Positions 17,994 to 56,622 of a DNA stretch of 64,000 nucleotides are shown in pieces. A model generated the notes under the pieces. The model was not told the origin of the DNA. It searched no databases and worked only from the letters and a program-made list of their open reading frames with translations. The position numbers and the translations under genes were made by a program. Every line of letters starts with the position of its first letter. The first letter of the stretch is position 1. The DNA is taken from sequence record PV660452; one strand, 5' to 3'. Source of the stretch: Escherichia phage LF82-9.

Positions 17994-18048
17994 GATATTC
18001 TCCTCAAATTGGTAGGAAGAAGTGTTATCTTCCTACCATCATAAACTA

Positions 18049-20688: not shown

Positions 20689-22502
20689 TGGTGTTTAACC
20701 CTATGCATGATTTCTTTATTTTTGCCGAGATTAAATCCACGTTCGTTCGGGTTCCCCAAATAACCGCACGTTCTTCTTATGGTGTTCATCTTTTTAGGAT
20801 CAGTTTCTCCACAAACTGAACAAACAAATCCATTTTCAGTAGGAGTCATCTCATGGGTACTTCCACACGTAAAACATTTATCTACTGGCATGTTAACACC
20901 AAAATAATCTAAATGTTGTGCAGCATAATCCCACACGGCCTCAAGACCTTTTAAGTTATTTTTCATATCAGGAAGTTCAACATAAGAAATGTGACCACCT
21001 GTCGCAATGAAATGATATGGCGCTTCACGAGAAATCTTTTCAAACGGAGTAATATTTTCTTCTACTGAAACATGGAAACTATTAGTGTACCAGCCTTTAT
21101 CAGTAACATCCTTTACACTTCCATATTTTTCTGTATCAAGTTTACAGAAGCGATAACAAAGGTTTTCAGCAGGAGTAGAATACAAGCTAAAAGCAAATCC
21201 GGTTCTTTCAGTCCACTGTTTAAGACGAGCATTCATTTTAGTTAAAATTTCTTGCCCAATATCACGACCGACAAGAATATTCAATTCGTGAATACCAATG
21301 TATCCTAAAGACACTGAACTTCTACCGTTTTTAAATAACTCAATTATGTCGTCATCAGGTTTAAGACGAACCCCGAATGCACCTTCTTGGTAAAGAATAG
21401 GAGCAACAGTCGCTTTAACACCCTTTAAAGAACTAATTCTACACATCAAGGCTTCAAAACACAGATCCATTCGTTCATTAAATAATTCGATAAATTTCTG
21501 TTCATTGAACTGTGTTCCAATATAAGAATCTAATGCGATACGAGGAAGATTCAGTGTTACAACACCAAGATTATTACGTCCATCAAGAATTTCATTACCA
21601 GTCGAATCTTTCCATACGCTCAAGAAACTACGGCAGCCCATTGGAGAAACTGGAACTGAAGAACCGGTAATAGCTTTATTATTCTTAACAGAAATAATGT
21701 CAGGATACATTCTTTTGCTTGCACATTCTAACGCAAGTTGTTTAATATCATAGTTCGGATCATCTTTATAAAGATTAACACCTTCTTCAACAAACATAAC
21801 AAGTTTAGGAAAAATAGGAGTTATTCCATCACGACCAAGACCTTTAATCCGATTTTTCAGAATTGCCTTCTGAATCATTCGTTCAGTCCAATCGGTTCCC
21901 GTACCAAATGTAATTGTTACAAAAGGCGTTTGTCCGTTTGAACTAAAGAGAGTATTTACTTCATATTCATAAGCTTGGAACGCATCGTATACGTCTTTTT
22001 CTGTTTTAGATTGGGCATAATTCAACGCATCAGCGATTTGCCATTTTTCTGCATCCTCAATATGTTTTGCATAGGTGCGTTTAACATAAGGAGAAAGAAC
22101 TTTATCGACATTCGCAAATGTAGTTCCGCCATACTGATGTGAAGCAACTTGTGCAGTAATTTGTGCCATAATTGCAGTAGCAACACCAATCGATTTAGGC
22201 GTTTCAATTTGAGCATTGCCTAATTTAAATCCATTCTCAAGCATCCCCTTTAAATCGACTAAACAGCAATTAGTAAATGGAAGAGCAGGAGAATAATCAA
22301 TATCATGCATATGAATGATTCCGCTTTCATGCGCATTCATAATAAAAGACGGGACCATATTTTTGGCAATGTGCTTAGACACAATACCAGCCATAAGGTC
22401 CCGTTGAGTTGGAAAAACACGAGAATCTTTATTAGCATTCTCGTTCAAAAGATCTTTATTAGTTTTATAAATTAATCCTTCAATTTCTTTTTCAATTTTC
22501 AT
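20685..22502 (-). CDS. nrdD: anaerobic ribonucleoside-triphosphate reductase NrdD, uninterrupted
   Basis: 605 aa; C-terminal glycyl-radical motif RTCGYLG and Zn-ribbon CxxC..CxxC. Confidence 0.95.
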   Translation of the reverse strand: MKIEKEIEGLIYKTNKDLLNENANKDSRVFPTQRDLMAGIVSKHIAKNMVPSFIMNAHESGIIHMHDIDYSPALPFTNCCLVDLKGMLENGFKLGNAQIETPKSIGVATAIMAQITAQVASHQYGGTTFANVDKVLSPYVKRTYAKHIEDAEKWQIADALNYAQSKTEKDVYDAFQAYEYEVNTLFSSNGQTPFVTITFGTGTDWTERMIQKAILKNRIKGLGRDGITPIFPKLVMFVEEGVNLYKDDPNYDIKQLALECASKRMYPDIISVKNNKAITGSSVPVSPMGCRSFLSVWKDSTGNEILDGRNNLGVVTLNLPRIALDSYIGTQFNEQKFIELFNERMDLCFEALMCRISSLKGVKATVAPILYQEGAFGVRLKPDDDIIELFKNGRSSVSLGYIGIHELNILVGRDIGQEILTKMNARLKQWTERTGFAFSLYSTPAENLCYRFCKLDTEKYGSVKDVTDKGWYTNSFHVSVEENITPFEKISREAPYHFIATGGHISYVELPDMKNNLKGLEAVWDYAAQHLDYFGVNMPVDKCFTCGSTHEMTPTENGFVCSVCGETDPKKMNTIRRTCGYLGNPNERGFNLGKNKEIMHRVKHQ

Positions 22503-22972
22503 TTTAAACTCTTTCTAAGCTGCTTTTTGAATGAAGCTATTAATTGTGTTTTAGTATCAGATTCATTATATTCAAATCCTCTTTGAAGCATCTCGGTCAT
22601 CATTTCCTCTTTACCTAGTCTTGAGAACTCTTTAGTTTTGTCTGGAACAAAATTAGGATGGATATTATTATCAGAATAATCTTGTTTCAAATAAGCAAGA
22701 AGAGCTTCAAGCCATTCGAGGTAGTCGACATCACGTCCTTTAAGACCGGAACGGTTGAACTTATGCTTCATTTGACCTTCTGCTGCGTTGCACAGATTAC
22801 AGAGTAATCCACGAACTCTACCGGCTTTTGGCCCGTTTAATTCATGGTCGTGGTCAAGATGGTTACCTTGAACATCAGGGTCTAATTCACGGTGGCAAAT
22901 AGGACACTTACCATTCTGTGCATCATAAAATTTTTGTTTTTCTTCTTTATATTTTGCGCCTGATAATAACAT
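22499..22972 (-). CDS. 49: endonuclease VII (gp49)
   Basis: Near-identical to T4 gp49 (..KCPICHRELDPDVQGNHLDHDHELNGPKAG..). Confidence 0.93.
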   Translation of the reverse strand: MLLSGAKYKEEKQKFYDAQNGKCPICHRELDPDVQGNHLDHDHELNGPKAGRVRGLLCNLCNAAEGQMKHKFNRSGLKGRDVDYLEWLEALLAYLKQDYSDNNIHPNFVPDKTKEFSRLGKEEMMTEMLQRGFEYNESDTKTQLIASFKKQLRKSLK

Positions 22973-23007
22973 GATAAACCCTTACCTTAAATAGATAAGG
23001 GTATTTA

Positions 23008-23433
23008 TTAACTTAAACGTCTTTCTAAATATTCAATGTATTCTGCGGCTGCTTGCATCAGGTTACCTTCATAGCCGTCGTTATTTTCTTGTCCAGCTAA
23101 TTTAGCTAATGCATAAGAAATTCGTTCACCTTCGAATTCACCAAGTTTACTACCTAGCACATCAGCAATATCAGCCGAATCAATTTCTTCGAGTTCATCT
23201 ATTGAATGGGATTCCCAGAAGCACCAAAGAGAAGTATCACGGTCATAGATGCAAAGTTTCTCACCTGTGTTCAACATCACTTCGATAATGCCATGGTCGC
23301 CATAACCATCTTCGGTAGTAGTACCAATTACCTTGAGGATTGTTCCTTTCTTTAATTCAGGAAACTTGACTTGTAGTTCTTCGTCTTCTTTAACAATCTT
23401 GAACCATTTACCGCGAGTTTCAGAAATATTCAT
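23008..23433 (-). CDS. hypothetical acidic protein (49.1/pin region); start at internal ATG
   Basis: MNISETRGKWFKIVKEDEEL... Confidence 0.45.
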   Translation of the reverse strand: MNISETRGKWFKIVKEDEELQVKFPELKKGTILKVIGTTTEDGYGDHGIIEVMLNTGEKLCIYDRDTSLWCFWESHSIDELEEIDSADIADVLGSKLGEFEGERISYALAKLAGQENNDGYEGNLMQAAAEYIEYLERRLS

Positions 23434-32735: not shown

Positions 32736-32861
32736 TTTACCATACTCGTTTCAATAAGATTCACTATGCCGTTTACCATGTTATAAGTAAACATCGGATA
32801 ATTGTATTGTACTACAACATAAGCGATAAGCAAAAGTTTCATTTTGTTCTCCGTTCGTTTT

Positions 32862-32900
32862 GGTAGGACTACTATAACATAGTCCTACCAAGATGTAAAC
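32862..32900 (-). promoter_or_regulatory. early promoter/stem-loop cassette
   Basis: GTTTACA N17 TATAGT with inverted repeat GGTAGGACTA/TAGTCCTACC. Confidence 0.45.
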
Positions 32901-33974: not shown

Positions 33975-33982
33975 TATTTATA
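33975..33982 (-). promoter_or_regulatory. late promoter TATAAATA
   Basis: Exact TATAAATA on minus strand about 25 nt upstream of ATG at 33950. Confidence 0.45.
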
Positions 33983-34017: not shown

Positions 34018-34320
34018 TTAGATAGATGTAGGCTCTAATTTTATTTTCATGAACTCGGCAAATTGTCTGGCGGTTTTTATGCCTTGTTCATGACATTCAA
34101 ATGCATCATCACAGGGGCTATTTTTGTAATGCTTTGCCATATACTTATAGAATTTTTCAGAGTTCTCGACATTTTGAATTTCAAACAAAGTATATACGTT
34201 TTTAATCCCTGATTCCATAAAGTTATCAAAGTATGGGTCAATATGTGCAGTACCAACGATAGGAGTTGTTGCTGCAAAAAACCCCAGCATCGCCATGACA
34301 GCTATCGCTCTTAAGGCCAT
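34018..34320 (-). CDS. secreted/periplasmic protein (signal peptide)
   Basis: MALRAIAVMAMLGFFAATTPIVGTA signal-like N-terminus. Confidence 0.5.
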   Translation of the reverse strand: MALRAIAVMAMLGFFAATTPIVGTAHIDPYFDNFMESGIKNVYTLFEIQNVENSEKFYKYMAKHYKNSPCDDAFECHEQGIKTARQFAEFMKIKLEPTSI

Positions 34321-34332
34321 ATAGGCCTCCTG

Positions 34333-34545
34333 TTAATTTTGGCCAGTATTTATTTTTCGCCTTTGGACGGCCTTAACATCTGTGAGGTATTTTTCCAGCT
34401 TGCGCTTGCGTGTATAATCAGCTTTAGAACCAGTTTGACGGATATCCTCGTTTAAATGAGAAATAGAATGTCCTAATTCTCTTCGGATTTCATCCAATTG
34501 GGTTACAGTAAGATTACGAAGTTGTCTTTCGTTTAATTGCTGCAT
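34333..34545 (-). CDS. hypothetical protein
   Basis: 70-aa ORF. Confidence 0.4.
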
Positions 34546-37086: not shown

Positions 37087-37545
37087 CTAGATTTTAATCA
37101 CTGCTTTAGAAGCTTTTCCTGGTAGTCGTTTACTGTTAATAATAGCCATTCTGCATTGAAGAGTCTTCATTTTGAATGCTGGATTTTCGCGACAAACTGT
37201 AAGTCCTAACCAAAGATTTCCATCAGTTATTTCTAAACGGCCTGGGCGATATTCGACACCTTCGACAAAATCTTCATCAACATCTGGACGTGCCGGCATT
37301 GATAAAAATTCTGCAACTTCTTTAGCATGATTTTTTACTTTATGAAATAATTCAAAAACGTAATTCTCATCTATTTCTCTCTGGATGGCACGATCTAAGA
37401 GATGTTGAGAATACTTGATATGAAAGCCTGGTAGTCCAAGAGACTTTGCAGCATCTTTTATACCGGCATTTATTTTGCGGAACTCCGTTTCAAAGATTCG
37501 ACGGAGTTTATTACGGCGGATAAAAACTTCCGAATTGATAGTCAT
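37087..37545 (-). CDS. regB: endoribonuclease RegB
   Basis: MTINSEVFIRRNKLRR.. close to T4 RegB; ATG at 37545 with GAGGAG SD. Confidence 0.9.
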   Translation of the reverse strand: MTINSEVFIRRNKLRRIFETEFRKINAGIKDAAKSLGLPGFHIKYSQHLLDRAIQREIDENYVFELFHKVKNHAKEVAEFLSMPARPDVDEDFVEGVEYRPGRLEITDGNLWLGLTVCRENPAFKMKTLQCRMAIINSKRLPGKASKAVIKI

Positions 37546-40342: not shown

Positions 40343-40756
40343 TTAGTAAATTGATTTACCATAGTATTTGTACCAAGTAGGACGTTGAGCAATTTTTTCA
40401 TCTAAGCGTGCTTGACTTATCGCAACGGACGCTTCGGACGGGACATAATTATTACGAAATTCGGCAGGGATGTCGGAAATATCCTGGACTGTCGTGTCCT
40501 TGATTTTGAAACCACGTTTCAAGCATTCAGCGATTAGCTCGATTTGTCGTAAACGTAAAAATTCAAGTTTGTCGTAAAAGAATGTTACGTGACCTGTGCC
40601 TAAGATAAATGTTGGAGAGATTTTAAAATCCTTTACACGTTTACCGTTTTGGACATGTTTACGGACTGCACTAAATACGCGTGGTAATTCACGATACTCA
40701 GCCATAAGATGTTGATCGGTCAGTTCAGAAACAAGTGTTAAATTGATACGAGTCAT
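40343..40756 (-). CDS. denV: endonuclease V (pyrimidine dimer glycosylase DenV)
   Basis: [27 protein letters not shown].. near-identical to T4 DenV. Confidence 0.93.
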
Positions 40757-40774
40757 AATTTCCTCCAAGTAGTT

Positions 40775-40813
40775 GATGAATGTATAGTATCAAAACCCTT
40801 GGAGGAAGTAAAC
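40775..40813 (-). promoter_or_regulatory. early promoter/stem-loop cassette upstream of denV
   Basis: GTTTACT followed by hairpin and TA-rich -10. Confidence 0.4.
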
Positions 40814-40814
40814 A

Positions 40815-41096
40815 CTATTTTTCTGAAGCGCCTGAAATATATTTTTCAAGACGTTGTTTCATCAGCGAGCCGTTCTTAGCGATTTCTTCCGGTTTATCGC
40901 ACATACGTAACAAGGCTTCAAGCTTAGCGATATCGCTGGTACGTTCAAATTTGCGAGTATCTATCTTACTAGCAAGTTCAGAAATACGTGCTAATAGACT
41001 TTCGGCTTCAACCAAAGCTGCACCTAGCTTAGTTGCAAATGTGTCAGTAGCTTCGTTAAGAATAGATTCTGATAAAAATTCACTATATGTTTTCAT
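40815..41096 (-). CDS. internal protein-like with capsid-targeting N-terminus
   Basis: [11 protein letters not shown]... Confidence 0.55.
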
Positions 41097-41581
41097 ATAT
41101 ACGCTTTCCAAGTTCCTGTTTTAAATGTTGAGATTACGCGTTTCGCGCGATTAGGTGTCTGACGATACCATTTAGATTGGGCGAGATTTACTGCCGCTTC
41201 ATCCCAACGTTTCTGTTGAAGCATACGAAGAGAATTAGTAAAACCAGCAACGCCTGCTACACCCATTTGGAAGACCATATTGACCAATGCACACCGACGA
41301 ACTGCATCTAAAGAATCATATACCGGTTTAAGTTTAGCATTACCCAAGATTCCGCGAACGGCTTTATCGACGTCTTCATTAAATAGCTTTTCAGCCTCAT
41401 CAAGGGTAATTGTACCGTTGCATTTACGACCGATCATTCTGTCAAGTTCAGCTTTAGCTACGGCTAAAGACGGGTTCTTTGTTACCAAGTGGCCTATGCC
41501 AATCGTCCAAAAGCCTTCAGTGTCTTTGTATAAAGTCAGTCTAAGACCTTCGTCATTACGAAGCATTTCAAATATATTCAT
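41093..41581 (-). CDS. e: lysozyme (gene e)
   Basis: [29 protein letters not shown] near-identical to T4 lysozyme. Confidence 0.97.
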
Positions 41582-41609
41582 AATACCTCCCACGTTTATA
41601 GGAGGTATT
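41582..41609 (-). promoter_or_regulatory. RBS-sequestering hairpin with late-promoter-like TATAAAC in the loop, upstream of gene e
   Basis: Minus strand AATACCTCC-TATAAACGTG-GGAGGTATT then ATG; SD GGAGG paired with ACCTCC. Confidence 0.5.
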
Positions 41610-41615
41610 TATTAC

Positions 41616-42074
41616 TTATAGGATGGTAGTGAGCACCTTATATAATGATTTGCCCATTACATATTCCCATTGAGAAGGTTTAATTAAAGCGAATGCATCA
41701 AATTCAGGAATCTGTCGTCCGTCCTGGAATGTATGATATGAATTACAAACACTGTTTCTGAATTGCTCGTGCTCTACAGGGATGGTATATAGGAACAGAT
41801 GAATATTCTTATTGTCTGAGTAATGATGTTCACCTAGGTCTTTCAGGAAGGCAGGGTCATATTGTGTAAACCCAGTTTCTTCTTCGCATTCACGAATAGC
41901 GGCTTCGATAGGAGATTCGCCAGGTTCGACACGGCCTTTAGGAATATCCCACCGATGAGCTAATGCACCTTTAGGACGAGAACCAGTTACACGACCCATG
42001 AATAATTCTTTATCTTTTGTCATGAAGATAATACCGGCTGATAGTTCTTTCACTTTATTTTTCTTACTCATCAT
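41616..42074 (-). CDS. nudE: Nudix hydrolase NudE
   Basis: Nudix box GRVEPGESPIEAAIRECEEETG. Confidence 0.88.
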   Translation of the reverse strand: MMSKKNKVKELSAGIIFMTKDKELFMGRVTGSRPKGALAHRWDIPKGRVEPGESPIEAAIRECEEETGFTQYDPAFLKDLGEHHYSDNKNIHLFLYTIPVEHEQFRNSVCNSYHTFQDGRQIPEFDAFALIKPSQWEYVMGKSLYKVLTTIL

Positions 42075-42315
42075 CTCGGTCCCATGATTTGGCCATTAAT
42101 TCGGACATAAATTCTTCAATACGCGTTTCTTTAGATGGACTTTCACTATTAGAGACCGCAAGTTTGTAATCTGCAATAGGACTGAACAAATCAAGGTCCG
42201 TATTAAGGTCGTCTTTGATTTTTTCTTCTGACACATCTTTATCATATGTGTACAGATAACTATCACATGATTCTGATTTAATGTAAATTGCTATACTCAT
42301 CTCAAATTCCTGCAT
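42064..42315 (-). CDS. hypothetical acidic protein
   Basis: 83-aa ORF. Confidence 0.4.
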   Translation of the reverse strand: MQEFEMSIAIYIKSESCDSYLYTYDKDVSEEKIKDDLNTDLDLFSPIADYKLAVSNSESPSKETRIEEFMSELMAKSWDRDDE

Positions 42316-42680
42316 TCGGTAATAAAACGTTCAACTTCGTTATTCTTGGCCTTTATCTTGTCTTTACGTTCCTGTAAACTACTTTTAACAAGATTAATAA
42401 TGATGCCTATAGTACCTCCACCAATTATACCACCAATTATACTTACGATAGTAGATGCCAATAAGATAGCGATAATATCTGGTATGGCAAAGGCACTTAC
42501 TTTAGTACTAAAAAACCATACCGACGGTACAAATATAATCCATCCTGTTATCCATTGGCACTTATTGAAAAACTTTTCAAGATCAGCTTGAGTTGTTCGT
42601 ATTACTTCATCGATAGGTTGATATCCATTAATGTATCTGTTCACGATAATACCTTCGTTGCCATCGTCTATATTAACCAA
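42297..42680 (-). CDS. membrane protein
   Basis: Gly-rich hydrophobic segment IVSIIGGIIGGGTIGIIINL. Confidence 0.45.
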   Translation of the reverse strand: MVNIDDGNEGIIVNRYINGYQPIDEVIRTTQADLEKFFNKCQWITGWIIFVPSVWFFSTKVSAFAIPDIIAILLASTIVSIIGGIIGGGTIGIIINLVKSSLQERKDKIKAKNNEVERFITECRNLR

Positions 42681-43710: not shown

Positions 43711-43748
43711 ATAGGACTACTATAACATAGTCCTATAATTGTGTAAAC
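43711..43748 (-). promoter_or_regulatory. early promoter/stem-loop cassette
   Basis: GTTTACA N17 TATAGT with inverted repeat ATAGGACTA/TAGTCCTAT. Confidence 0.45.
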
Positions 43749-56599: not shown

Positions 56600-56607
56600 T
56601 ATAAATA
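56600..56607 (+). promoter_or_regulatory. late promoter TATAAATA for genes 53-5-6
   Basis: Exact TATAAATA on plus strand about 43 nt upstream of gene 53 start. Confidence 0.5.
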
Positions 56608-56614
56608 GTATTAT

Positions 56615-56622
56615 TATTTATA
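56615..56622 (-). promoter_or_regulatory. late promoter TATAAATA for gene 4 (divergent)
   Basis: Exact TATAAATA on minus strand about 27 nt upstream of gene 4 ATG. Confidence 0.5.

Follow-up and report, generated by a model that had tools for sequence, protein, structure and literature searches.

The lysozyme gene e in the window, by which we mean the whole 64-kb stretch of phage LF82-9 DNA analyzed here, is preceded by an RNA hairpin that covers its ribosome binding site, and we consider it very probable that the arrangement is the Mosigvirus (RB69-type) ortholog of the translational control of T4 gene e. The T4 gene is a textbook case of translational control by mRNA structure, in which a hairpin that sequesters the Shine-Dalgarno (SD) sequence reportedly has late promoters inside it. 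The switch is already known, being the published T4 gene e control (credited to McPheeters et al. 1986, NAR 14:5813, in the review PMC3014915, which also treats relatives) in an RB69-type genome, and it is nothing new in principle. The element would keep lysozyme off early in infection although the gene sits in an early transcription unit. The analysis also has a use in annotation, because the hairpin is labeled as a terminator in two Mosigvirus records, RB69 e is annotated from Met6, and the RB69 late-promoter list is without an e site.

Both the hairpin and gene e lie on the minus strand, a point on which the sequence-only reading of this DNA had been silent. Gene e (41093..41581, minus strand, with its ATG at 41581..41579, from the list of open reading frames) encodes a T4-type soluble lysozyme of 162 amino acids, which is 83% identical to T4 gpe over 161 residues and matches the Pfam family PF00959 (Phage_lysozyme) at 7.5e-14. 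The annotation of Escherichia phage LF82-1 has an e coding sequence with the identical start. Read along the minus strand from 41621 down to 41576, the sequence is CTATAAGTAATAAATACCTCCTATAAACGTGGGAGGTATTATGAAT, and the segment 41609..41579 within it reads AATACCTCC TATAAACGTG GGAGGTATT ATG. Upstream of e lies nudE, which encodes a Nudix hydrolase (41616..42074, minus strand; Pfam PF00293, 5e-16) and whose stop codon at 41618..41616 stands 6 nt ahead of the 5' arm of the hairpin; this nudE-e gene order is the same in the window, T4, and RB69. Over 1.1 kb around e, identity to the window is 100% for LF82-1 and 98% for members of Mosigvirus that include JS09 and Shf125875, and the e leader, from the last nudE codons to the first e codons, is identical to that of RB69, the type species of Mosigvirus. 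Judged by sequence, the window belongs to Mosigvirus, the RB69-type phages.

Two other readings of the frames at this locus were considered and rejected. A GTG at 41593 would give an alternative start for e (a 166-amino acid frame), yet it is without an SD, and the T4 and LF82-1 proteins begin MNIFEML. A plus-strand frame at 41280..41621, antisense to e, found no support. At the far end of e, its stop codon and the start of the following gene, which encodes an internal head protein, lie in an overlap of 4 bases at about 41096..41093 (minus strand; LF82-1 coding sequence coordinates), suggesting translational coupling between the two genes, whereas in T4 a gap of 87 nt separates e from ipIII. 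Public records are not uniform over this locus: the RefSeq RB69 e coding sequence (L059 5201..5674) is annotated from Met6 rather than Met1, several records name e "baseplate hub subunit and tail lysozyme," and in MT782071.1 (JN02) features at the e locus carry the label "sulfurtransferase | hydrolase."

The sequence-only reading had proposed that the transcript folds just upstream of the e start codon and buries the SD, and folding with RNAfold bore this out, giving a hairpin with perfectly complementary arms and a minimum free energy of -16.3 kcal/mol. The 5' arm (41598..41609, minus strand) has as its core the anti-SD sequence AAUACCUCC at 41609..41601, extended by UAU at 41600..41598, and the 3' arm (41582..41593, minus strand) has the core GGAGGUAUU at 41590..41582, with GUG at 41593..41591 supplying three weaker pairs. 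The two cores are perfect complements over 9 bp, and the three additional pairs beyond them (U-G, A-U, and U-G) leave a 4-nt loop, AAAC (41594..41597, minus strand), in the minimum-energy fold; with the 9-bp stem alone, the loop consists of 41600..41591. The motif TATAAAC, which the same reading had placed in the loop, is likewise there, as TATAAAC(G) at 41600..41593 between the 9-bp arms. The SD itself, GGAGG at 41590..41586, lies within the 3' arm, which stops one base short of the AUG at 41581..41579. Compared with shuffled sequence the fold has a z-score of -3.08 on 71 nt, with 2 of 200 shuffles equally stable, and of -5.01 on 46 nt, with none of 200 equally stable.

We expressed the burial of a start site as the free energy required to force positions -14..+3 into a single-stranded state. 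This metric took over from the SD pairing probability, which exceeded 0.9 at 15% of the 94 start sites in the window and was therefore a poor discriminator. Opening the region at e costs 16.5 kcal/mol and ranks second among the 94 sites in the window that combine an SD, an ATG, and an open reading frame (median 4.9, standard deviation 3.1). The repeat as such is less distinctive. Perfect 9-bp inverted repeats with loops of 3-12 nt occur at six loci in the 64-kb window (11 overlapping 9-mer windows), and shuffled sequence yields 4.6 +/- 2.6 such 9-mer windows, so that a 9-bp repeat alone is not rare. As such repeats are common, the case for the e hairpin rests on its position and its conservation. 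A scan of 40500..42500 with the Rfam covariance models returned no relevant family, the sole match being a chance hit to a lncRNA (17.4 bits, E 0.96) located elsewhere.

To follow the leader through T4-type phages, we scanned IMG/VR with the lysozyme protein and obtained 54 loci which, together with T4 and the window, gave 17 distinct leaders with a recognizable homologous upstream region. Among phage sequence records, roughly 900 have a match to the leader of the window. A hairpin over the SD was found in all 16 of the distinct leaders that were folded singly (of the 17 aligned), with z-scores from -2.2 to -5.7. The GG.GG of the SD is invariant or nearly so across the 17 leaders, and ATAAATAC is invariant in 17 of 17, including those in which AAUA is unpaired. 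The stem itself does change: in one leader (L023) CCCC/GGGG replaces CCUCC/GGAGG, and in a group of others (L012-L021) the stem is without its outer AAUA/UAUU pairs, GUCCU standing on the 3' side, and has four new pairs, CUCCUAUC/GAUAGGAG, toward the loop. The more distant lysozyme loci (L026 onward) are without such a hairpin, in agreement with a remark in the gene e passage of a review that Aeh1, 44RR, 25, and 31 are without the e hairpin (PMC3014915).

Covariation counted on fixed columns of the 17-leader alignment gave 76% of cells paired as against 75.2% after shuffling; the CCUCC/GGAGG core barely varies, and the flanks shift register. The covariation score of 0.150, against 0.133 for shuffled alignments, was reached by 27-37 of 500 shuffles and is not significant, with three pairs having two-sided changes. 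Two alignments were used for the counts, one from MAFFT and one fitted to the model; in the latter the covariance model left the flanking pairs un-re-registered. Under the family covariance model the window and T4 score 58.3 and 58.0 bits, respectively, both sequences being part of its seed alignment. What was observed directly is the hairpin, where it lies, and that it is conserved; its exact placement and its conservation exceed what chance provides, and its strength is unusual as well. At this base composition some 4-5 perfect 9-bp inverted repeats are to be expected per 64 kb, which is the argument for a chance repeat that has no function, but that explanation is extremely improbable for a hairpin that falls precisely over the e SD and AUG, has the second highest of 94 opening costs, and has orthologous hairpins in 16 distinct leaders, all with z <= -2.2.

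In public annotation the same structure has been taken for a terminator. The hairpin at 66756..66779 of MK327934.1 (L058 694..717) is annotated as "putative transcriptional terminator, -12.00," and a terminator feature lies under the same match in MK373784. A stable stem standing directly past the nudE stop codon could indeed be an intrinsic terminator that closes the nudE operon. We regard this as very improbable, however, because the stem is followed by AUGAAUAU (8 nt) and not by a U-tract, and a scan for minus-strand terminators was empty at this position. Moreover, the SD of e constitutes the 3' arm, which runs as far as the AUG, and 16 leaders keep this arrangement despite changes in the stem sequence. 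In T4, according to the gene e passage of the review, early transcripts demonstrably reach into e (PMC3014915), which likewise speaks against this reading.

The likely late promoter of e, as judged from its sequence and its setting, is AATAAATA at 41613..41606 (minus strand), a candidate gp55-type late promoter that is the A(-13) variant of TATAAATA and shares 4 nt with the outer part of the 5' arm. If the box occupies -13..-6, the predicted +1 falls at about 41600/41599, directly 3' of the 9-nt arm, and the predicted late leader would be 21-22 nt long with its SD free. The cost of opening the e start site would accordingly drop from 16.5 kcal/mol in read-through RNA to 3.3 kcal/mol in the predicted AATAAATA transcript. 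Across the 17 leaders the corresponding values are 8-18.7 kcal/mol for read-through RNA versus 1.2-8.3 kcal/mol for the predicted late RNA, taken to start 6 nt past (N)ATAAATA. The position of AATAAATA matches that of the upstream e late promoter of T4, and its distance to the ATG of 25 nt equals that of the canonical TATAAATA boxes at 33975 and 34570. The window has three AATAAATA sites on the minus strand, each of them 25-30 nt ahead of an ATG. Because ATAAATAC is kept even where it is unpaired, its constraint appears to be that of a promoter and not that of a stem.

An A at -13 is acceptable by the record of other late promoters. Of 50 T4 late-promoter sites on a published list, 9 have it, and no accepted variant is commoner (PMC2988020); in RB69, among others, T(-13) shows little conservation (PMC1524935). 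When we read the 21 published RB69 late-promoter predictions from the genome, 17 were TATAAATA, three were AATAAATA, one was TATAAAGA, and none resembled the loop motif TATAAACG. The same exchange is visible at an orthologous site. Gene 49, encoding endonuclease VII (22972..22499, minus strand), is preceded by AATAAATA at 23009..23002 and then by a hairpin, CCCUUAUC/GGUAAGGG, over its SD, a site that takes 13.8 kcal/mol to open, the third highest of the 94 values. The gene 49 leader of the window is the same as that of T4, with AATAAATA, and RB69 has TATAAATA there, at a site predicted as the late promoter Pl:47792 by Nolan et al.; T and A thus interchange at -13 of an orthologous late promoter.

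Some features of the e box are less typical. The CCTCC that follows AATAAATA is G+C-rich, unlike most late promoters, in which an A+T-rich stretch downstream of the box is usual (PMC2988020). The RB69 list of Nolan et al., which came from an HMM scan and includes the gene 49 site, holds no e site, its nearest minus-strand entries being 58753 and 78258. Another box one mismatch from the consensus, TATAAGTA at 41620..41613, was considered and set aside as the late promoter. It overlaps the nudE stop codon, and RNA started from it would still contain most of the 5' arm and need 14.1 kcal/mol to open, so that the box could yield silent RNA only. A literature search for modern mapping of T4 start sites found nothing directly usable. 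If AATAAATA is the promoter, changing it to AACAAATA would abolish late lysozyme synthesis and delay lysis.

The sequence-only reading had looked for the late promoter in the loop instead, at TATAAACG (41593..41600, minus strand). This late-promoter-like motif, TATAAAC(G), does sit at the position of the second e late promoter of T4, where the T4 loop has TATAAATA, and it keeps six of the eight consensus bases. That it works as a late promoter, alone or together with AATAAATA, is nevertheless unlikely. It departs from TATAAATA at both -7 and -6, and more than one departure is found in just 2 of the 50 listed T4 sites; among the 21 RB69 predictions, none has C or G at those positions. The motif also stands 2 nt nearer to the SD than in T4, which puts its predicted +1 at 41587, within the SD, and would leave the leader GGUAUU without one. 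In the aligned leaders, the loops of other genera are without a late-promoter motif, and a loop copy of TATAAATA is present in T4-genus leaders only. The shorter motif TATAAACN is common in the window, with 23 matches that lie mostly within coding sequence. The loop motif was therefore probably wrongly identified as a late promoter, and TATAAACG is most likely a non-functional, decayed counterpart of the second (loop) late promoter of T4; if it is such a remnant, changing it to TACAAACG would have no effect. By the evidence of the aligned sequences, only the promoter that overlaps the 5' arm is conserved across genera, and the loop promoter is peculiar to the genus of T4.

The broader likeness to T4 that had been drawn from the sequence fared better than its loop box. 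Early transcripts that are silent and late transcripts that start inside the hairpin are both supported by orthology, which extends to the gene, its synteny with nudE, and the leader. A start from AATAAATA would fall on the first base of the loop, which is still inside the hairpin, so that the mechanism survives with a different promoter, one that lies in part outside the segment to which the sequence-only reading had drawn attention.

For e itself we infer promoter use, read-through, and the translational effect from T4, and the sequence of events would be as follows. Before replication, transcripts from upstream early or middle promoters would pass through nudE into e and carry both arms. 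On these long transcripts the anti-SD AAUACCUCC would pair with GGAGGUAUU, making the region from the SD through to the AUG double-stranded, so that binding of the 30S subunit would be blocked and no early lysozyme made. Late in infection, RNA polymerase with gp55, gp33, and the gp45 clamp would initiate at AATAAATA, where the 5' arm is encoded, and starting some six bases beyond the box (at about 41600/41599) would produce a late mRNA with the 5' end 5'-UAUAAACGUGGGAGGUAUUAUG. Such an mRNA is without the 5' arm and would hence form no hairpin and be translated. A possible source of the early read-through is a sigma-70-type (T4-early-like) promoter candidate at 43719..43747 (minus strand), a TTTACA-17-TATAGT sequence with an extended TG that scored 10 of 12 in a consensus scan. 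It is the nearest strong upstream candidate. The minus-strand frames are closely packed from there to e, and a terminator scan between this promoter and e gave no minus-strand terminator-like site.

The hairpin might also silence e on long RNAs as described and yet be relieved in a different way late in infection, by endonucleolytic cleavage between the arms or by translational coupling to the nudE stop. The local promoter is, after all, a variant followed by G+C-rich sequence and was not called in the published RB69 scan, and the nudE stop is just 6 nt before the 5' arm. We think it quite unlikely that release occurs by such a route. ATAAATAC is held at a fixed distance from the arm in 17 of 17 leaders, even where it is unpaired, and in T4, where the spacing to the nudE stop is equal, the gene e passage of the review gives about 100-fold less lysozyme from the longer transcripts (PMC3014915). 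By inference, the part of the stem within reach of a ribosome at the nudE stop would be confined to a few outer pairs. Neither RNA processing nor nudE coupling is needed to account for release, and both fit poorly with an invariant ATAAATAC. A related and similarly doubtful proposition is that in RB69-type phages both e late promoters are degraded, the one being AATAAATA with its G+C-rich stretch and the other TATAAACG, and that these phages have either a form of release undescribed for T4 or a weak single promoter. Were this so, one would look to RNase cleavage, to opening coupled to ribosomes on nudE, or to an unusually weak promoter that sets a lower dose of lysozyme. Initiation at AATAAATA remains our preferred reading.

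Several other sites in the window have a switch-like appearance. The frame at 34320..34018 (minus strand) is a homolog of the antiholin gene rI (Pfam PF24205, 3e-24) and has AATAAATA 27 nt before its ATG (34354..34318); part of its SD, GGAGG, is taken up in GGCC/GGCC pairing, and opening the site costs 11.3 kcal/mol, the sixth highest of the 94 values. rI may therefore be a second lysis-timing gene with the late-promoter and ribosome-site hairpin arrangement. The start sites at 37545, 40756 (denV), 54574, and 33293 (minus strand) have SD opening costs of 10.7-16.8 kcal/mol when 60 nt of upstream sequence is included, and a -10-like box (e.g. TACTATAGAC) stands some 20-25 nt ahead of each. RNA started at such an adjacent promoter might escape the SD structure, as at e. 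Near-identical palindromes, TAGGACTATGTTATAGTAGTCCTA, occur at 32861..32890 and 43711..43736 (minus strand), just past GTTTACA, with a sigma-70-like -10 box, TATAGT, in the loop and a GGAG ribosome binding site and an ATG shortly after; the impression is of an early-promoter cassette that is repeated and contains a hairpin. At 18010..18038 there is a third hairpin, GGTAGGAAGA/TCTTCCTACC. Finally, two perfect TATAAATA boxes stand back to back at 56600..56607 (plus strand) and 56615..56622 (minus strand), 8 bp apart and each followed by a ribosome binding site and a start codon, and this divergent pair matches the RB69 late promoters Pl:80613 and Pl:80684 between genes 4 and 53.

The T4 system offers the closest comparison for gene e. 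In its gene e passage, the review by Uzan and Miller (2010) describes T4 transcripts from either of two late promoters as being without the 5' part of the structure and well translated, and the mapped T4 e 5' ends marked in its Figure 5 come from the upstream box (PMC3014915). By the same passage, comparable structures are found in close T4-type relatives, and in each of these phages the DNA for the 5' strand includes a late promoter (PMC3014915). The RB69 e leader appears to be among those drawn in Fig. 5A of that review, as RB69 is absent from the lists in the legend of phages that lack the structure or e (PMC3014915), and between the RB69 leader and that of the window there is no sequence difference.

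The T4 e leader, TATAAATACCTTCTATAAATACTTAGGAGGTATTATG, has two perfect late-promoter boxes. T4 and the window share a homologous leader of the form ATAAATACCT.C...GGAGGTATTATG, with the invariant ATAAATAC and a conserved GGAGG and ATG, ahead of orthologous lysozymes (83% identity) and with nudE as the upstream neighbor. The stability of the hairpin is similar, -16.3 kcal/mol in the window versus -14.9 to -16 kcal/mol in T4, and in both cases (A/T)ATAAATA overlaps the 5' arm so that the predicted start falls just past it. The differences lie in the boxes and in the shape of the stem. Whereas T4 has two perfect TATAAATA boxes, one over the 5' arm and one in the loop, the window has AATAAATA and then the decayed TATAAACG, 2 nt nearer to the SD, and the window stem of 9 perfect bp plus three pairs closes a 4-nt loop, whereas the T4 stem contains a U-G pair and closes an 8-nt loop. 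The late-promoter and ribosome-site hairpin switches of T4 gene 49, soc, and I-TevI share their logic with that of e, but their genes and stems are unrelated to it, making these systems analogous and not homologous to the switch at gene e.
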